Below, piece after piece: positions 1,964-29,320 of a stretch of 61,384 nucleotides of DNA (positions within the stretch are counted from its first letter, which is position 1; every line of letters starts with the position of its first letter). Under the pieces are notes generated by a model that saw nothing but the letters and a program-made list of their open reading frames with translations, searched no databases and was not told the origin of the DNA. The stretch comes from Clostridia bacterium. Its GTDB lineage: Bacteria; Bacillota; Clostridia; UMGS1883; UMGS1540. The stretch covers positions 1 through 61,384 of the forward strand of contig JAZOQG010000011.1 of NCBI GenBank assembly GCA_045656005.1, in the 5' to 3' direction. The position numbers and the translations under genes were made by a program.

Positions 1964-2170
1964 ATGATTATAAAAAATGAAGACGGATTTATTTTGACAC
2001 CAAGTTTAAACGGGAAAGAGTGTAGGCATGACGGAGAGCATTTCGATGAGAGTGGAAATCTTTTTGACTGTCATTGCGGAGAATGCAGTTATTACTTAAA
2101 CTGTTTTGGTCATGAGGTAGAAGACTATTTTAAAAATGAAATTAATAAAAGATTAATAAACAAAAAATAA
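1964..2170 (+). CDS. 68-aa Cys/His-rich hypothetical protein (possible metal binding)
   Basis: SD GAGGTGG; promoter and terminator present; C-x-H, CHCGEC-x4-C motifs. Confidence 0.65.
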   Translation: MIIKNEDGFILTPSLNGKECRHDGEHFDESGNLFDCHCGECSYYLNCFGHEVEDYFKNEINKRLINKK

Positions 2171-2198
2171 TCCGAACTCAAAGTTCGGATTATTTTTT
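2162..2198 (+). terminator. Intrinsic terminator
   Basis: 17-bp perfect inverted repeat AAAAAATAATCCGAACT-caa-AGTTCGGATTATTTTTT. Confidence 0.8.
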
Positions 2199-2200
2199 CT

Positions 2201-2419
2201 AGGGAATAGGAAAAAATGTTTCAGAACGGACAGACTGCGACGAAGTTGTATATAGATACTACGATGGAGCAGTCTGTCCGTAGCAAAAAGGCGTAAAAAT
2301 ATAGGGAAATCTCAATTGATGAGATTTCCCTACTGAATAAGTTAATTTAATGTTTTAAAAAACACTATATTATTATAAAATCTTGCCTTTTTGCGTTCTG
2401 GACTTTTTTAACATTCCCT
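2201..2419 (-). mobile_element. MITE-like dispersed structured repeat, copy 1
   Basis: Homologous to 28328-28561 in the opposite orientation; imperfect TIRs AGGGAATnnnAAAAAA; internal hairpins CGGACAGACTGC/GCAGTCTGTCCG and AGGGAAATCTCA/TGAGATTTCCCT. Confidence 0.7.
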
Positions 2420-2420
2420 A

Positions 2421-4064
<1,644 letters not shown>

Positions 4065-18118: not shown

Positions 18119-19618
18119 ATGTTTGAAAAGGTAACCCCCGAAAGGGTGGGTGTTTCATCGGAACACGTTAAAAAATATATAGAGCTTTTGGAAAAAGCAA
18201 ATCTTTCAACACATAATGTGGTAATGATAAGACATGGTAAAATTTTTTATGAGGCTTACTGGAAGCCTTTTCATAAAGATTTTTTACATAGAATGTACTC
18301 TGTTTCAAAAAGTTTTGTGTCAATTGCGATAGGACTTTTGGCAGGAGACGGTCTTATAGACCTTGATGCACCCATGGTTTCATATATTGACGAGTCTTAT
18401 ATAAAAAACGCAAATAAATATGTAAAAAAGCAAACAATCCGTGATATGCTTATGATGTGTACGGGTTATCCAAAAGAACAGGTGGCATTTTTCCGCCGTA
18501 AACCTGAGGACAGACTTTTGGATTATTTCGACAGCTCATCTTCTGATGGTTATGTAGCGAGTTACCCTGGCTCGATTTTTTCTTATGACAGTCACGGCTC
18601 TTTTGTACTTGGCGCAATAGTGGAAATTGTTACGGGCAAAAAACTTATGGACTTTTTGAGAGAACGTATATTTGATAAAATCGGAGTTTCCAAAGAGGCT
18701 TATTGTCTTACATGCCCCGGCGGTCATTCATGGGGCGACAGTGCAGTTTTGTGTAAGGCACGCGACCTTGCAAAAATGTGTCAGTTTATGCTCCGGCAAG
18801 GTGAGTGGGAAGGCGAGCAGCTTCTTGATAAGAATTATGCAGAGAAAGCCACCTCAAATCTCGTTTCAACCGATCAGGTCGGTCACCTCATTCCAGGAGC
18901 TTATGGTTATGGTTATCAGTTCTGGAGAACAAGAAACAATAGCTTTTACTTCAATGGCATGGGCTCGCAGTATGGCATATGTATCCCCGATAAGGATATG
19001 ATATTTGTAGTAAATTCCGATAATCAGGGGCATCCAAGACCTGATATGGTAATTATCGACCGCTTTTTTGAAGAAATAGTTGAAAAAGCGAAGGATGAGC
19101 CATTGCCGGAAAATAAAGAAGCTTATGATGCAATATGTGAAATGGCAGAAAACCTTGAGCTTTTTTCGCTTAAAAATGAGATAACTCAAAATTTTTCAGA
19201 TAAAATAAACGGCAAAGAATATAGACTTGAAGAAAACCCGATGGGTATTACGAAAATGAAGTTTACATTTGAAAATAATGAAGGAAAGCTTGAATATACA
19301 AATGCACAGGGAGATAAAACTATTTATTTCGGAATAGGAAAAAATGTTTTCGGAAAATTTCCGCAGGAAGGGTATGCAGATGATGTTGCAACAAAGTTTG
19401 CACCCGGAAATTATTATGATTGTGCCGCATCCGCTTTCTGGAGTCACGAAGACTGCCTTACAATGCTTGTTCAGATTATTGATAAGTATTTCGGCAGACT
19501 TCATGTCCGCTTTGCGTTTAAAGAAAACGGCGAAAAAATAGTTTTGTTTATGGATAAGATAGCAGAAGATTTTCTTTCGGAATATGAAGGATATGCAGAA
19601 GGCATTGCTGTAAATTAA
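18119..19618 (+). CDS. Serine hydrolase, beta-lactamase/PBP-like fold
   Basis: YSVSKS (SxxK), FSYDS, YGYGYQFW, GMGSQ; no signal peptide. Confidence 0.85.
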   Translation: MFEKVTPERVGVSSEHVKKYIELLEKANLSTHNVVMIRHGKIFYEAYWKPFHKDFLHRMYSVSKSFVSIAIGLLAGDGLIDLDAPMVSYIDESYIKNANKYVKKQTIRDMLMMCTGYPKEQVAFFRRKPEDRLLDYFDSSSSDGYVASYPGSIFSYDSHGSFVLGAIVEIVTGKKLMDFLRERIFDKIGVSKEAYCLTCPGGHSWGDSAVLCKARDLAKMCQFMLRQGEWEGEQLLDKNYAEKATSNLVSTDQVGHLIPGAYGYGYQFWRTRNNSFYFNGMGSQYGICIPDKDMIFVVNSDNQGHPRPDMVIIDRFFEEIVEKAKDEPLPENKEAYDAICEMAENLELFSLKNEITQNFSDKINGKEYRLEENPMGITKMKFTFENNEGKLEYTNAQGDKTIYFGIGKNVFGKFPQEGYADDVATKFAPGNYYDCAASAFWSHEDCLTMLVQIIDKYFGRLHVRFAFKENGEKIVLFMDKIAEDFLSEYEGYAEGIAVN

Positions 19619-23224: not shown

Positions 23225-24292
23225 TTGGAAAAGGCGGCTTATTTAGTCTTGGAAAACGGTAAAATTTTTAAGGGCAAGTTTTTTGGCGTTCCTAAAAATG
23301 TGCTTGGCGAAGTTGTTTTTACTACTTCTATGAATGGTTATATTGAAACTTTGACAGACCCGAATTATTTCGGTCAGATTGTTGTTCAAACATTTCCTTT
23401 GATTGGGAACTATGGTGTTATGGAAAGTGACGTTGAAAGCAGTAGTGTTAAAGTAGCGGCTTATATTGTTAAGAGTTTGTGTGAAGTCCCCTCGAATTTC
23501 AGAAGTGAGGGCGCACTTGACACTTTTTTTAAGGAAAAAAATGTGACGTGCCTTTCGGGAATTGATACTCGTGCACTCACAAAGACCATTCGTGAATGTG
23601 GCAGCTTGAATGGCTTGATAACCGATAATATTGATAATATAGATTTCGGAAAAGTTAAATCCTATAAAATAGAAAATGTAACAGAAAGCCTTTCGACCAA
23701 GGAAATATATTCTGTAGGCGAAGGCAAAAAAAATGTTGTAGTTTATGATTTTGGTGTAAAAAACAGCATTGTAGATGTGTTTAAAAACAGAGGGTATAGA
23801 GTTTACGTAGTACCTTTTGATACACCTGCTAAGGAAGCACTTGAGCTTAATCCTTCGGGAATAGTATTTTCAAATGGTGGCGGAAACCCATGTGATAATA
23901 AAGTTTCTGCTGAAATTGTAAAAGAACTTTTTGAAAGCGGTATCCCGATGCTCGGTATCAGCCTCGGTCATGAGATTATGGCACTTGCAAACGGTTTTGA
24001 ATGTGAAAAACTTAAATATGGTCATCACGGTGCAAATATCCCCGTTAAAGATGCAGAAAGTGACAGAGTTTATATAACAAATCAGAATCACCTTTATGCA
24101 GTTTCTGCAAACAGTATTAAAAGCGATATAGCTGATGTTATTTTCTATAACGTTAACGATAAATCATGCGAAGGTCTTCGCTATAAAAATGCTCCTGCAA
24201 TTTCTGCGGAGTTTTATCCCGACAGTGCCGGTGGGCTTTGCGATACAACCTTTGTATATGACAAATTCTTTGATATGATGGAGGGAAGATAA
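23225..24292 (+). CDS. carA: Carbamoyl-phosphate synthetase small subunit with degenerate glutaminase site
   Basis: GEVVFTT, LTDP, PLIGNYG, QNH present; GISLGHE replaces GICLGHQ and EFYPD replaces QxHPE. Confidence 0.92.
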   Translation: MEKAAYLVLENGKIFKGKFFGVPKNVLGEVVFTTSMNGYIETLTDPNYFGQIVVQTFPLIGNYGVMESDVESSSVKVAAYIVKSLCEVPSNFRSEGALDTFFKEKNVTCLSGIDTRALTKTIRECGSLNGLITDNIDNIDFGKVKSYKIENVTESLSTKEIYSVGEGKKNVVVYDFGVKNSIVDVFKNRGYRVYVVPFDTPAKEALELNPSGIVFSNGGGNPCDNKVSAEIVKELFESGIPMLGISLGHEIMALANGFECEKLKYGHHGANIPVKDAESDRVYITNQNHLYAVSANSIKSDIADVIFYNVNDKSCEGLRYKNAPAISAEFYPDSAGGLCDTTFVYDKFFDMMEGR

Positions 24293-27200
24293 TGCCGCTT
24301 AATAAGAATATTAAAAAAGTTTTGGTTATAGGCTCCGGCCCTATTGTTATAGGTCAGGCGGCTGAATTTGATTTTGCTGGGACACAGGGTTGCCGAGCAA
24401 TAAGAGAAGATGGAATTGAAATCGTACTTCTCAACTCAAACCCTGCAACAATTATGACAGATAAGTCAATGGCTGACAGAATTTATATCGAGCCTATGAC
24501 TCTTACTACCGTTAAAAGAATAATCCAGAAAGAAAAACCCGATAGTATTTTGTCAGGTCTTGGCGGACAGACAGGACTTAATCTTTGTATGCAGCTTGCA
24601 AAAGAAGGTTTTCTTGAGGAAAACGGTGTAACACTTTTGGGTGTTTCTCCCGAAACTATAGATAAAGCTGAGGATAGACAGCTCTTTAAAGACACAATGG
24701 AAAGCATAAATCAGCCCTGTATTCCTTCAAAGGTTGTAACTGATGTTGAAGCTGCCTTGGAATTTGCAGAGGAGATAGGCTATCCCGTAATTGTTCGTCC
24801 TGCATTTACTTTGGGCGGTACAGGTGGCGGTATTGCAGATGATGCGGCACAGCTTTCTGAAATTGCAAGCGTAGGTCTCTCGCTTTCTCCTATTACTCAG
24901 GTACTTATTGAGAAATGTATTTCAGGCTGGAAAGAAATCGAATTTGAAGTAATGCGCGACAGTGCAGGAAACGCTATAACAGTATGCTCAATGGAAAACT
25001 TTGACCCTGTTGGTGTTCATACGGGCGACAGTATAGTTGTAGCACCAGCGGTAACACTTTCACCCAAAGAATATCAGATGCTTCGTACAGCCGCACTTGA
25101 CATAGTTTCGGCACTTGGAGTTGAAGGAGGATGTAACTGTCAGTTTGCACTTCATCCTGAGTCTTTTGAATATGCAGTTATCGAGGTAAACCCCAGAGTT
25201 TCCCGTTCTTCTGCTCTTGCATCAAAGGCAACAGGATATCCTATAGCAAAGGTTGCAACAAAGGTTGCAATAGGCTATCGCCTTGACGAAATTGTAAACT
25301 CCGTTACAGGAACCACTTATGCGGCGTTTGAGCCTGCAATAGATTATATTGCAGTTAAATTCCCGAAATGGCCGTTTGATAAATTTGTTTATGCAAAGAA
25401 AGAACTCGGCACACAGATGAAGGCAACAGGCGAGGTTATGTCTATTGATGATAACTTTGAAGGTGCACTTATGAAGGCAGTTCGTGGCGCAGAAATTGGA
25501 ATTGACACACTCAATTTCAAAGGAATGGATAAGAAAAGTGAAGAAAAACTTTTCAATATGATTAAAAAACCTACAGATTTGCGTCTTTTCGCTGTGTATG
25601 AAGCATTAAAAAGAGGTATTACACCCGAAAAAATCAATGAAATCAGTAAAATTGATAAATGGTTCCTTTATAAACTTTTGAATATTGTAAATTACGAAAA
25701 ACAACTTGGCGGTGAGGTTTCCGAGGAAATGTATTTCGAGGGTAAAAAACTCGGCTTCCTTGATAGTACAATCGGAAAAAGCTATGGTGCAAAACCAAAT
25801 TATAAAATGGTTGATACATGTGCATGTGAATATGCTGCAACAACCCCATATTTCTATGCTGCTTACGATAAGGAAGAAGCAGGCGGAATTAATGAGGCAG
25901 TTGACTTTAAGGATAAAAACGGCAAGAAAACAATTCTTGTACTCGGTTCTGGTCCTATAAGAATCGGTCAGGGAATTGAGTTTGACTACGCATCTGTTCA
26001 CTGTATTGAATCCCTTCAGAGAATGGGCTATGAGGTTGCAATCATCAATAATAATCCCGAAACCGTTTCAACAGATTTTGATACGGCTGACCGTCTTTAC
26101 TTCGAGCCACTTTGCGGTGAAGATGTAATGAACATCATAAACTTTGAAAAACCAGAGGGTGTTGTTGTTGCGTTCGGCGGCGGAACTGCAATTAAACTTA
26201 CAAAGCTTCTCAGTAAAAATAATATTCCGATTTTAGGAACATCTGCTGACAGCATTGATGCGGCAGAGGACAGAGAAAGATTTGAACAGCTTCTCGAAAG
26301 CCTTAATGTAAAAAGACCGAAAGGCTTTTCTGCAATGACTACCGAGGAAGCTCTTGCAATCGCAAATAAAATCGAATACCCCGTTTTAATCCGTCCTTCA
26401 TATGTTTTGGGCGGCCAGAACATGATTATCGCTTATGACGATAATGATATCAAAGAGTACATGGAAATTATCTTGAGACAAAAACAGGAAAATCCGATAC
26501 TCATTGATAAATATATAAACGGATATGAAATAGAAGTTGATGCAATTTGTGACGGAGAGGATATTTTAATTCCCGGTATCATGGAGCATATTGAAAGAAC
26601 AGGTATCCATTCAGGGGACTCCATTGCAGTTTATCCTCCGCAGAATATTGATGACTCTATTGCAAATGACATTTTTGAAACAACAAAGGCTATTTGCCTT
26701 GGACTTGGAGGCATCGGTCTTGTAAATATCCAGTATATCGTAAAAGATGGCGAGATTTATGTAATCGAGGTAAATCCTAGAGCATCAAGAACAGTTCCAT
26801 ATATGAGCAAAATCACAGGTATTCCAATGTGTGATATTGCAATGCTTGTTTCCCTCGGCACAAAGCTTCGTGATACAGAGTATGGTATCGGCCTTTATAA
26901 AACCTCTGCATATACAGCCGTTAAAGTGCCTGTGTTCTCTTTTGAGAAACTTACAGACGTTGATACTCAGCTCGGTCCTGAAATGAAATCAACAGGTGAG
27001 GTTTTGGGTATCGGCAAAAATCTTGAAGAAGCACTTTATAAAGGGCTTCTAGGTGCAGGCTATAAGATGTCAAAAACAGGCGGTGTGTTCTTAACTGTTC
27101 GTGACAGTGATAAAGATGAAATCGGTGATATTGCCGAGAAATTCAGCCAGATGGGATTTTTGCTTTATGCAACTGCAGGAACTGCAAGAGTTCTTGAAAA

Positions 27201-28320
27201 AATGGGACTTCGTGTAAAGGTTGTAAATAAAATTCACGAAAGTGAAGATAATTCAATGACACTTCTTGATAGCGGAAGTATCAAATATATTGTTTCAACC
27301 TCCAAAAAGGGAAGAGACCCGGTTCGTGACAGTGTTAAGATAAGAAGAAAAGCAAGCCTTCTCGGAATACCATGCCTTACTTCTATTGATACTGCAAATG
27401 CTCTTGCAAATACTCTTATGAGTAAATACAGTGAAATTAACACAGAGCTTGTTGATATAACTCACCTTCGTGCAGAAAAAATAAATCTTAAATTTACAAA
27501 GATGCAGGGCTGCGGAAACGATTATATTTATATTGATTGCTTTAAGCAGACAGTAAATTCACCTGAAAATCTCTCAGTATTTCTCACAGACCGTCACTTC
27601 GGAATAGGCGGTGACGGAGTTGTGCTTATCTGCCCTTCGGAAGTTGCAGATGCAAAAATGAGAGTGTTCAATGTTGACGGAAGCGAAGGAGAAATGGCAG
27701 GAACTTCCATAAGATGTGTCGCAAAATATCTTTATGATAATAAAATGGTGAATAAAGATACAGTAACGGTTGAAACTAAAAGCGGGGTTAAAACCTTAAA
27801 GCTTAAAACCGTTGGCGGACTTGTTTCAAGCGCACAGGTCAATATGGGACTTCCAACATTCAGCCCCAAATCTATTCCGATGAATGTTGAAGGGGAAACA
27901 GTTATAAATAAAAAAATTGAAGTTTGCGGAAAAGAATATGAAGTAACCGCACTTTCCTTTGGAAATCCTCATGCAGTAGTGTTTATGGATAACTCTGAAA
28001 AAATTGAAGTTTCAAAAATCGGACCGCAGTTTGAAAACTGCCCCATTTTCCCTGAAAAGGTTAATGCGGAATTTGTTCAGGTTCTCGATAATAAGACACT
28101 TCGCGTATCCGTATGGGAGAGAGGAAACGGGGAGACACTCGCCTGCGGAACAGGAGCATGCGCAGCAGTAGTTGCGGCAGTAATGTGCGGACATTGCGAG
28201 AAAAACAGCGATATTAAGGTTATGCTTTTGGGCGGAGAACTTACAATCCGCTACACAGACGAGGGAGTGTTTATGACAGGACCTTGCGAAAAAGTATTTG
28301 AAGGTATTGTAACAATCTAA
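24292..28320 (+). CDS. carB: Carbamoyl-phosphate synthetase large subunit fused to a C-terminal DapF-fold domain
   Basis: GSGPIVIGQAAEFD, two ATP-grasp units, MGS domain, then in frame LKFTKMQGCGNDY...GIGGDG...GNPH...WERGNGETLACGTG from ~27481. Confidence 0.93.
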   Translation: MPLNKNIKKVLVIGSGPIVIGQAAEFDFAGTQGCRAIREDGIEIVLLNSNPATIMTDKSMADRIYIEPMTLTTVKRIIQKEKPDSILSGLGGQTGLNLCMQLAKEGFLEENGVTLLGVSPETIDKAEDRQLFKDTMESINQPCIPSKVVTDVEAALEFAEEIGYPVIVRPAFTLGGTGGGIADDAAQLSEIASVGLSLSPITQVLIEKCISGWKEIEFEVMRDSAGNAITVCSMENFDPVGVHTGDSIVVAPAVTLSPKEYQMLRTAALDIVSALGVEGGCNCQFALHPESFEYAVIEVNPRVSRSSALASKATGYPIAKVATKVAIGYRLDEIVNSVTGTTYAAFEPAIDYIAVKFPKWPFDKFVYAKKELGTQMKATGEVMSIDDNFEGALMKAVRGAEIGIDTLNFKGMDKKSEEKLFNMIKKPTDLRLFAVYEALKRGITPEKINEISKIDKWFLYKLLNIVNYEKQLGGEVSEEMYFEGKKLGFLDSTIGKSYGAKPNYKMVDTCACEYAATTPYFYAAYDKEEAGGINEAVDFKDKNGKKTILVLGSGPIRIGQGIEFDYASVHCIESLQRMGYEVAIINNNPETVSTDFDTADRLYFEPLCGEDVMNIINFEKPEGVVVAFGGGTAIKLTKLLSKNNIPILGTSADSIDAAEDRERFEQLLESLNVKRPKGFSAMTTEEALAIANKIEYPVLIRPSYVLGGQNMIIAYDDNDIKEYMEIILRQKQENPILIDKYINGYEIEVDAICDGEDILIPGIMEHIERTGIHSGDSIAVYPPQNIDDSIANDIFETTKAICLGLGGIGLVNIQYIVKDGEIYVIEVNPRASRTVPYMSKITGIPMCDIAMLVSLGTKLRDTEYGIGLYKTSAYTAVKVPVFSFEKLTDVDTQLGPEMKSTGEVLGIGKNLEEALYKGLLGAGYKMSKTGGVFLTVRDSDKDEIGDIAEKFSQMGFLLYATAGTARVLEKMGLRVKVVNKIHESEDNSMTLLDSGSIKYIVSTSKKGRDPVRDSVKIRRKASLLGIPCLTSIDTANALANTLMSKYSEINTELVDITHLRAEKINLKFTKMQGCGNDYIYIDCFKQTVNSPENLSVFLTDRHFGIGGDGVVLICPSEVADAKMRVFNVDGSEGEMAGTSIRCVAKYLYDNKMVNKDTVTVETKSGVKTLKLKTVGGLVSSAQVNMGLPTFSPKSIPMNVEGETVINKKIEVCGKEYEVTALSFGNPHAVVFMDNSEKIEVSKIGPQFENCPIFPEKVNAEFVQVLDNKTLRVSVWERGNGETLACGTGACAAVVAAVMCGHCEKNSDIKVMLLGGELTIRYTDEGVFMTGPCEKVFEGIVTI

Positions 28321-28327
28321 AACAATC

Positions 28328-28561
28328 AGGGGATGTTAAAAATTCCCAGAGCACAAAAAGGCAATAGTTTTTATTGGCATTGTAAATTTAAAAAACATTA
28401 AAGTAACTACATTTTGTAGGGAAATCTCATAGCATGAGATTTCCCTGAATTTTTAAGCCTTTTTGCTACGAACAAACTTCACCTCTCGCTGTATAACATA
28501 CAGCTTCGGGTAACCCCTGCGGGTTCAGTTTGTCCGTTCTGAAACTTTTTTCCTATCCCCT
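28328..28561 (+). mobile_element. MITE-like dispersed structured repeat, copy 2
   Basis: Homologous to 2201-2419; TIRs AGGGGATnnnAAAAA; same AGGGAAATCTCA/TGAGATTTCCCT hairpin. Confidence 0.7.
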
Positions 28562-28579: not shown

Positions 28580-29320
28580 ATGTTGCGCAATTATAAAGAA
28601 GAAACCGAAAAAAGAGTAAAATTTATAAAAGACACACTTGAAAGTGCTCACGCAAAAGGAATTGTTTTCGGCAACAGCGGTGGAAAAGACTGTGCACTCG
28701 TGGGAATACTTTGCAAAATGGCATGCGAGGATACGGTGGGAGTAATTATGCCCTGCTCTTCAAGACGAAACTATGAAGAGGACATGCGTGACGGTATGGA
28801 GGTTGCAGAAAAATTCGGCATCGAAACAAGAGTTGTTGATATAACGGATGTGAAGGAAAAATTCCGAAGGATACTTGAAGGTAAGACCATGCTTTCTAAG
28901 ATGGCAGACACAAATATAAATCCACGTCTTCGTATGACTGTGCTTTATGCCATAGGTGCATCGGAAGGTAAACTTGTAGCAGGAACAGGTAACAGAAGTG
29001 AGCGATATATGGGCTACTTTACAAAGTGGGGTGACGGAGCTTGTGATTTAAATCCCATTTCCGACCTTACAGTTAAGGAGGTTTATGAATTTTTAGAATA
29101 CCTTGGAGCACCCGAGGCTATTATGACAAAAGCCCCTTCTGCCGCGCTTTTTGAAGGACAGAGTGACGAAGAGGATATGGGAATAAAATATGCCGATATT
29201 GATAAATTTTTGCTTACAGGCGAAATATCCGATGAAAATCGTGAGATTATAGAAAGATATAATAAAGGAAGCCGTCACAAGGTCAGAATGCCTGCGGTGT
29301 ATAGAGAAATTAATGAATAA
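28580..29320 (+). CDS. nadE: NH3-dependent NAD+ synthetase (no glutaminase domain)
   Basis: SGGKDC, NINPRLRM, GTGNRSE, GYFTKWGDG, PSAAL...DEEDMG; 246 aa. Confidence 0.92.
   Translation: MLRNYKEETEKRVKFIKDTLESAHAKGIVFGNSGGKDCALVGILCKMACEDTVGVIMPCSSRRNYEEDMRDGMEVAEKFGIETRVVDITDVKEKFRRILEGKTMLSKMADTNINPRLRMTVLYAIGASEGKLVAGTGNRSERYMGYFTKWGDGACDLNPISDLTVKEVYEFLEYLGAPEAIMTKAPSAALFEGQSDEEDMGIKYADIDKFLLTGEISDENREIIERYNKGSRHKVRMPAVYREINE

Follow-up and report, generated by a model that had tools for sequence, protein, structure and literature searches.

Two inverted copies of a non-coding element in the window

The 61,384-nt stretch of DNA analysed here (the window) carries groEL on its minus strand and, on its plus strand, a carB-dapF fusion gene followed by nadE (NAD synthase), and the 3'-ends of groEL and carB-dapF each adjoin a copy of the same non-coding element (Table 1). 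The forward sense of copy 1 (2201-2419) lies on the minus strand and that of copy 2 (28328-28561) on the plus strand, and the two are thus mutually inverted. An initial annotation, made from the letters of the sequence, had proposed two diverged copies at these places, and they are real: they align over their full length with a mean column identity of 84%, and the shared blocks GTCCGTTCTGAAAC, GCCTTTTTGCTACG and AGGGAAATCTCA-loop-TGAGATTTCCCT are exact in both and are present at no other site in the window (the chance expectation for the hairpin pattern AGGGAAATCTCA-loop-TGAGATTTCCCT is 0.00 matches). Folding of each copy, on either strand, gave z values of -6.3 to -11.5 relative to dinucleotide shuffles. 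Neither copy contains an ORF, as the annotation had also said, and its “TA flanks” of copy 1 are one added pair (T...A) that extends the inverted repeat and not a direct duplication, in agreement with its statement that there is no consistent target duplication. Searches of the window with nhmmer and the family profile (below), and with the covariance model with its filters off, found no third copy. A marginal match to the right half of the covariance model at 19329-19399 on the minus strand (21 bits, rough E 0.03) is probably due to chance; it lies within a 510-aa beta-lactamase-family ORF.

The left end of copy 1 is 1 nt past the groEL stop codon, and the copy fills the space between that stop codon and a bidirectional terminator hairpin. 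Copy 2 begins 7-8 nt past the carB-dapF stop codon and stops 19 nt short of the nadE start codon, so that it occupies the entire spacer between these genes. The inner hairpin of each copy, called T_in here, is followed by a run of Ts (ATTTTT at 2293-2302 in copy 1 and AATTTTT at 28447-28456 in copy 2).

Table 1. Positions of the two element copies, their parts and the adjacent genes in the window.
Feature	Position	Strand	Basis
Copy 1, whole element	2201..2419	-	nhmmer 2420-2200, E 9e-45; covariance model 86 bits
Copy 1, P1 5' arm (left terminal inverted repeat), AGGGAATGTTAAAAAAGTCCAGAA	2396..2418	-	family alignment, covariation count
Copy 1, P3 5' strand, GCAAAAAGGC	2385..2393	-	covariation count
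Copy 1, inner hairpin T_in, terminator-like stem-loop toward groEL	2303..2331	-	terminator-like site called 2333->2301
Copy 1, P3 3' strand, GCCTTTTTG	2284..2292	-	covariation count
Copy 1, P2 domain: perfect 12-bp lower stem CGGACAGACTGC/GCAGTCTGTCCG, degenerate apex	2227..2280	-	fold, family alignment, covariation count
Copy 1, P1 3' arm (right terminal inverted repeat), GTTCTGAAACATTTTTTCCTATTCCCT	2202..2226	-	family alignment, covariation count
External bidirectional terminator hairpin after copy 1, common to groEL and the small ORF 1964-2170	2162..2198	.	terminator call
Copy 2, whole element	28328..28561	+	nhmmer E 1.4e-55; covariance model 115 bits
Copy 2, P1 5' arm	28329..28351	+	family alignment, covariation count
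Copy 2, P3 5' strand	28354..28362	+	covariation count
Copy 2, T_in, terminator-like stem-loop toward carB-dapF	28418..28446	+	terminator-like site called 28417-28447
Copy 2, P3 3' strand	28457..28465	+	covariation count
Copy 2, P2 domain: lower stem, upper stem, P2a (GCTGTAT/ATACAGC), P2b (ACCC/GGGT)	28469..28536	+	fold, covariance model
Copy 2, P1 3' arm	28537..28560	+	family alignment, covariation count
groEL, 3'-end adjoins copy 1	2421..4049	-	
carB-dapF fusion gene, 3'-end adjoins copy 2	24292..28320	+	
nadE (NAD synthase), next gene past copy 2	28580..29320	+	

Two of the neighboring reading frames deserve a brief description. The carB-dapF gene is a single ORF of 1342 aa with carbamoyl-phosphate synthase large subunit domains, an MGS domain and a C-terminal diaminopimelate epimerase domain (aa 1220-1334), and the same fusion (1345 aa) is present in the relative represented by locus L003. 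The plus-strand ORF at 1964-2170, which is convergent with groEL, encodes a 68-aa Cys/His-rich protein without a Pfam match; the near-identical strain L092 retains its counterpart (66 aa, ~78% nt identity), with a different C-terminus.

Fold, compensatory changes and modular forms

Fold and covariation were measured on an alignment (A3) of 39 non-redundant full copies of the family. The two ends of the element (GGGGATGTAAAAAAAGTCCAGA... and ...GTTCTGAAACATTTTTTCCTATCCCC) pair with one another over ~24 positions to form P1; the arms have 19 aligned pairing positions at which ~90% of the cells are paired in the 39 copies, and the pairing is visible in both window copies. Within P3 (GCAAAAAGGC/GCCTTTTTGC) lie T_in and an AT-rich spacer of low conservation, and P2, the best-conserved part, is a three-way junction with a lower stem (CGAACAAACT/AGTTTGTCCG), an upper stem, P2a and a P2b of variable length. 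In the resulting nine-helix structure 89.8% of the cells are paired (83.1% in shuffles), both sides have changed in 34 of the 66 pairs (177 cells) and all nine helices contain compensatory changes; none of 500 shuffles matched the observed pairing and covariation, and slid controls pair at only 32-52%. The T_in stem itself covaries in 11 of its 12 pairs.

The covariations that had been noticed between the two window copies hold among the 39 members: the outer-stem difference CAGACT/AGTCTG versus CAAACT/AGTTTG is pair 177-304 (AU in 35 copies, GC in 4), that at the ends, AGGGAAT/ATTCCCT versus AGGGGAT/ATCCCCT, is pair 9-331 (GC in 23, AU in 12), and the inner GTAT/ATAC hairpin is helix P2a. Such strong covariation supports the initial annotation's proposal that the structure is under selection. 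Each genome has one version of the outer P1 stem, and this version varies from genome to genome. Conserved unpaired motifs include GTCCGTTCTGAAAC, GCTAC and CTTCGGGTAACC, where the invariance of GTCCGTTCTGAAAC comes from how the copies were collected.

Members of the family have a G+C content of ~35-46% and fall into short forms of ~180-270 nt, long forms of ~440 nt and stubs of ~50 nt. The long forms, at ~13 loci, carry an extra conserved multi-helix domain of ~200 nt that is inserted at P2a, is always found within an element and adds ~5 helices to the nine of the short forms; it contains no conserved small ORF, and by eye its reading frames differ between members. Other variants are copies with a short P3, four stubs that consist of P1 only and four solo right ends. 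The progression from long to short forms and on to stubs and solo ends looks like a series of internal deletions. These modular long and minimal forms, the adjacency to stop codons and the internal terminator-like hairpin (below) are features that the initial annotation had not recorded.

An uncatalogued family in uncultured gut Clostridia

Further copies were collected with a right-end pattern made of GTCCGTTCTGAAAC, an optional base and a T-run, ending in ...TTTTTTCC for the metagenome scan and in ...TTTTTT for the genome scan. This 20-22-mer is present at 14 metagenome loci and at 69 loci in ~30 MAGs, with up to 13 exact 20-mer matches per MAG, and in all the family has ~90 members in ~30 gut Clostridia MAGs. 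Loci around the copies were taken as pieces of up to 8 kb, and a covariance model of the right half found 90 copies in the 620 kb of fetched loci and none in the empty-site loci (below); in the window it found the two known copies only. The carrier MAGs were recovered from the guts of ruminants and of Hadza people, under the labels Clostridia, Oscillospiraceae or Eubacteriales, and the window region itself is contained in sequencing runs of sheep and bovine gut metagenomes. Among named organisms, Congzhengia and Qingrenia have the GroEL proteins nearest to that of the window (80% identity), the former filed by NCBI under Oscillospiraceae; a look-up of the exact GroEL sequence gave no record. 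Right-end matches in one Bacillus and one Rhodospirillales genome lie inside unrelated sequence and were set aside as chance.

The copies are dispersed over non-homologous loci in many genomes, where their neighbors are housekeeping genes such as groEL, carB-dapF, nadE, valS and luxS. Since copies on different contigs of one MAG can be more than 93% alike, the family has multiplied recently. No similarity to the element was seen in plasmids, phages or viral contigs, and a GCCTTTTTGCTACG...GTCCGTTCTGAAAC pattern had no match in viral contigs. A pattern built from the window's own inner hairpin had no match in viral contigs or in 185,579 species genomes, since that hairpin varies between subfamilies. 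Comparison with Rfam gave no match at the gathering score in the whole window and no credible family: around copy 1 permissive E-values gave nothing above chance level, and three long-form loci had no match at E<=0.1. Copies 1 and 2 are confirmed as members of an uncatalogued non-coding, modular, palindromic repeat family in the chromosomes of uncultured gut Clostridia (Oscillospiraceae-like). The element is not limited to two copies without empty sites, and the ORFs and loci examined gave no sign that it is the end of a known IS.

In relatives, metagenome contigs are broken exactly at the element or within it (L004 at its position 1; L088 at its end, 18 nt past the groEL stop codon), and at many MAG loci the family match is <300 nt from a contig end, as fits a multi-copy repeat that fragments assemblies. 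At some loci (L045 2609-2638, L036 2523-2560 and L072 7374-7725) tandem or partial extra copies directly follow a full element; these include a second left end and two right halves in a row, a mosaic clustering like that of BIMEs.

Position after stop codons and terminator features

The placement of the element relative to genes is strongly polar. On its left side the neighbor is the tail of a co-oriented upstream gene in 39 of the 46 copies with a left gene call, and in 33 of these 39 the distance from stop codon to left end is -11 to +8 nt (median 3 nt), with the stop codon of the upstream gene inside the element in a few copies. To the right of the element there is a gene tail in 45 of 69 cases and a gene start in 24. 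No copy is reliably placed between divergent gene starts; the sole head-to-head call (L062) is head-to-tail in its ortholog L066. T_in scores as terminator-like in the two window copies, with the same sense as groEL in copy 1 and as carB-dapF in copy 2, and across the family its T-rich tail is found in the forward direction only. No conserved promoter-like site is present in the element. An outward-facing promoter in the AT-rich spacer was considered for the few copies that lie 25-33 nt from a divergent start codon, and was dropped when no promoter-like site was found there.

Of 82 distinct right ends, 48 have a perfect palindrome (8-21 bp) after them, within ~10 nt in 46 of the 48. Most of these bidirectional-terminator-like palindromes are built on the core CTGTAAAAAA...TTTTTTACAG, which is seen in stand-alone hairpins of the same genomes too; one arm of such hairpins matches the P1 5' arm. 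P1 looks like such a host-genome terminator hairpin split by a large insert. The idea that the outer P1 stem is the remnant of a split host terminator was prompted by L001, which has AGGGG...CCCCT in the same place; we rejected it as a general rule, since copies of one genome share their outer stem and those of different genomes do not.

In the related MAGs, an ordinary terminator is a long perfect palindrome in which a CTGTAAAAAA-loop-TTTTTTACAG core is combined with variable outer stems (for example, at L008 7966, L056 1748, L059 5309 and L062 7209); such terminators are also found downstream of most family copies (for example, at L010 1911-1960). They are a separate repeat family, reminiscent of uptake-sequence-type terminators; the window contains no terminator with this core. 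Two terminators mirror the sequence beside them: the 21-bp stem of L093 2245-2290 is a mirror of the final two codons plus the TAG of its upstream gene, and the 16-bp stem at 2162-2198 of the window is a mirror of a junction containing TAATCCGAA, a sequence found immediately after the groEL stop codon in the empty strain L092. Both palindromes look templated and not evolved base by base. The predicted 745-aa protein P0121 contains a GroEL (78% identity over 71% of the query) and may reflect read-through or a fusion at the 3'-end of groEL in a relative.

Empty and filled alleles

Empty sites in related strains were found at both window loci, and in fact conspecific strains have them at all three loci checked. 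At the copy 2 locus (carB-dapF / nadE) the window and L004 (a long form) are filled, and L001/L002 (NadE 93% identical) and L003 (81%) are empty, with a 52-61-nt spacer that holds a plain terminator hairpin. At the copy 1 locus the window is filled, and L092, L089, L090 and a bovine-gut contig that skips 2152-2419 are empty; L092, whose GroEL protein is 100% identical to that of the window (search table) and whose groEL gene is 98.8% identical in nucleotides, has a 32-nt spacer with an ordinary hairpin. At the third locus L040 is filled and four or five conspecific contigs (L093-L096) are empty, and there the 36-nt spacer is a 21-bp perfect palindrome. Every empty allele thus has an ordinary terminator hairpin in the slot. 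The filled alleles are without this native hairpin, and the gene end beside the element is locally more diverged than its surroundings: 35 of 40 positions are identical beside the element in the L040 pair compared with 711 of 713, and in the copy 1 pair the small ORF is ~78% identical compared with the 98.8% of groEL. None of the three empty/filled pairs gives a clean before/after view of an insertion. The missing native hairpin and the local divergence indicate that the alleles have been exchanged by homologous recombination and that the original insertions are older, with their junctions lost.

What kind of element is this?

Small intergenic repeats of uncultured gut bacteria are common and rarely catalogued; they break metagenome assemblies and can be mistaken for regulatory RNAs. 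The family described here, with its alignment, covariance model and clear rules of placement, is a well-defined case. We think it probable that the element is a non-autonomous, palindromic, modular mobile repeat, of the MITE/BIME/SPRITE/BOX kind, that occupies terminator slots. It fills the “terminator slot” of a gene with T_in directed toward that gene and, usually, a long bidirectional terminator after it, and transcription from the upstream gene would make the element the 3'-end of that mRNA. To judge from its sequence features, T_in may terminate transcription; a terminator-like T_in would account for tolerance of the element only there and in that polarity, and copies would persist solely in terminator slots because the element brings its own terminator. 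It apparently does so, and takes the place of the native terminator in housekeeping genes such as groEL. A point against this reading is that, if T_in terminates efficiently, P3, P2 and P1 would be unable to form in the transcript of the upstream gene. Multiplication might depend on a function supplied in trans or on hairpin-directed recombination, in either case without target duplication. If termination and spread were worked out, they would give a view of how transcription-unit boundaries are remodelled in these genomes, and might also reveal a hairpin-directed insertion route.

Could the element instead be a classical MITE, that is, a deletion derivative of a TIR-type IS whose parent transposase binds the P1 ends as double-stranded DNA and moves it by cut-and-paste? 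The initial annotation had called it MITE-like, and its imperfect terminal inverted repeats of ~24-28 bp, small size, lack of an ORF and multi-copy, dispersed distribution do agree with that. The outer stem of P1, uniform in each genome and varying between genomes, is also as expected for ends matched to one transposase, so that on this view the P1 covariation arises because both ends co-evolve with that protein. However, no fixed-length target duplication was found: direct repeats of 3-6 nt, examined at all boundary offsets, do not exceed what A-richness gives (best scores of 9/39 versus a null mean of 5.3 for k=4, explained by AAAA, and of 4/39 versus 3.1 for k=5). There is no transposase with matching terminal inverted repeats, RAYT or parent IS among the 20 window ORFs, the 10 neighbor ORFs of clustered copies or the recurrent neighbor genes, which are common paralog families only (for example, AraC regulators), and no locus examined has two P1 ends 0.7-3 kb apart around an ORF. 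Moreover, the internal helices P3, T_in, P2, P2a and P2b, which a transposase would not read, covary as strongly as P1, and the tight placement at stop codons is atypical of TIR transposons. We therefore regard a classical MITE as unlikely. The broader claim of a non-autonomous mobile element is upheld by dispersal, near-identical copies in one MAG and empty sites; the strict MITE sense is not, as no duplication, no clean insertion and, among the ORFs and loci examined, no transposase was found. Absence of a duplication is compatible with an IS200/IS605-derived palindromic element (PATE), and in that comparison the left flanks share A-richness only and no TnpA or TnpB was seen nearby.

A second alternative is that the element is primarily a functional structured RNA, either a 3'-UTR element that ends and stabilises the upstream mRNA or a small RNA from one strand, and that its spread is secondary. 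Nine helices with compensatory changes together with conserved unpaired stretches, the added ~200-nt multi-helix domain of the long forms, the polarity with the upstream gene and the forward terminator-like hairpin are all features that such an RNA might have. The element is also present in metatranscriptome contigs: one runs from the groEL 3'-end through 35 nt of the left arm of copy 1, and others, RNA-derived and from a bovine sample, contain the arms and P2 of family members; all these contigs are without strand information and may include DNA. The mismatches in the stems could in principle tell which strand is read as RNA, and at position 184-263 the forward strand does have a G.U in 18 of the 39 copies. 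At one other fixed position, however, the forward strand has an A.C in 37 of the 39, which is a G.U on the reverse strand, so the two fixed positions favor opposite strands, and mismatches outside them are about equal (38 G.T and 47 A.C). Fold energies and RNAalifold results are also nearly equal on both strands. Such strand-symmetric mismatches mean that the fold cannot be assigned to RNA; stem pairing may be kept at the DNA level, or the constraint may act on both strands, and the P1 covariation could equally be attributed to two ends matched to one protein. In addition, the element has no Rfam family and no conserved promoter-like site, close relatives are without it at all three loci, and many copies are decayed. 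T_in also lies upstream of the best-conserved domain, so a transcript terminated there would be without that domain. An RNA function as the primary role is thus improbable in our estimation, and the repeated ncRNA suggested as an option by the initial annotation is not established. This case carries a caution, in that strong compensatory covariation alone is no demonstration of RNA function.

In a third reading, a dedicated machinery would use the conserved multi-domain fold, with its invariant unpaired motifs and conserved A.C mismatch, as substrate or guide to place the element precisely at the junction of stop codon and terminator, for example as single-stranded DNA or RNA that integrates into terminator hairpins. 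It is quite unlikely in our judgment; if true, the element would be a novel hairpin-targeting mobile element or large structured nucleic acid and not a decayed IS.

Finally, template switching or quasi-palindrome correction could yield the compensatory pattern in elements that are simply overgrown terminator palindromes with an unselected fold, and the long perfect palindromes of the host terminators (one of which includes the last two codons and stop of the upstream gene, and another of which is built from junction sequence beside copy 1), the near identity of the P1 5' arm with one of their arms and the strand-symmetric mismatch spectrum would fit this, but it is very unlikely as it accounts for the covariation and not for the element, leaving unexplained the conserved unpaired motifs, the near-constant A.C and the near-identical 200-440-nt units at unrelated loci.

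Comparison with known repeat systems

A mobile repeat in terminator slots, the reading we prefer, resembles in function or placement the pneumococcal SPRITE and BOX elements, Bacillus bcr1, the Neisseria Correia elements and REP/BIMEs (PMC3184786, PMC3733652, PMC2649163). Judged by their descriptions, the element is outside all of these and is a separate family of the same broad class, since it has no target duplication, unlike bcr1, Correia and classical MITEs, differs from REPs in size and composition, matches no Rfam family and is without attC core sites. It stands out by its stop-codon adjacency, its built-in terminator, the P1 arm that it has in common with host terminator palindromes and the elaborate fold of its long forms.

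SPRITE and BOX are likewise small non-coding dispersed repeats of a Gram-positive chromosome, and BOX is modular, with end modules that pair, a variable interior and a length of 67 to 637 nt; the element here is similarly modular, with a terminator-like hairpin at gene 3'-ends. Two SPRITE features are seen in it, an inner terminator-like motif and a bias toward 3'-ends (left 39/46, right 45/69). SPRITEs are ~105 nt long, whereas the element, likened to them by description, is larger and far more structured, with a nested three-domain fold and an optional 200-nt domain. Unlike SPRITE and BOX, it starts a few nt past a stop codon and its hosts are uncultured gut Clostridia.

In the Bacillus cereus group, the bcr1 (group A bcr) repeats are MITE-like, flanked by 5-bp direct repeats and composed of two independent stem-loops (PMC3184786, citing Okstad 2004, Klevan 2007 and Kristoffersen 2011). 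They are similar in being Firmicutes repeats of ~155 nt or more with a distribution that is unconserved in close strains, compensatory changes in a cruciform-like fold and transcription. The element here differs in that it has no direct repeats and its P1 encloses P3 and P2, and an internal terminator or stop-codon adjacency is not described for bcr1. Correia elements (CREE/NEMIS) of Neisseria share inverted-repeat ends, a conserved core, presence/absence between strains, co-transcription with neighboring genes and an influence on transcript ends; they duplicate TA, carry IHF sites and create promoters, whereas no duplication and no promoter-like sites are found here (PMC2649163, PMC2229807). 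REP/BIME sequences (REPIN, RAYT) are extragenic palindromes at gene 3'-ends without target duplication that form mosaics and tandem clusters, and they have been credited with terminator or mRNA-stabiliser roles; REPs, however, are GC-rich hairpins of 20-40 nt, and the element is AT-rich, multi-domain and 180-440 nt long (PMC3733652, PMC3184786).

Two further candidates were compared and set aside. By eye the ends do not fit the 38-bp ends of the Tn3 family. Integron attC sites have the core sites R'' RYYYAAC and R' GTTRRRY; the ends CCAGAAC / GTTCTGA of the element do not fit these, and its flanks are housekeeping genes and not promoterless cassette arrays. A REP-like GTAG is present on the reverse strand just 5' of the foot of the P3 hairpin in most copies (GCTAC = GTAGC), and in one subfamily (L056/L069/L083 of MAG JAZNWH and L073 of JAGAJK) GCTAC is replaced by GCTC.
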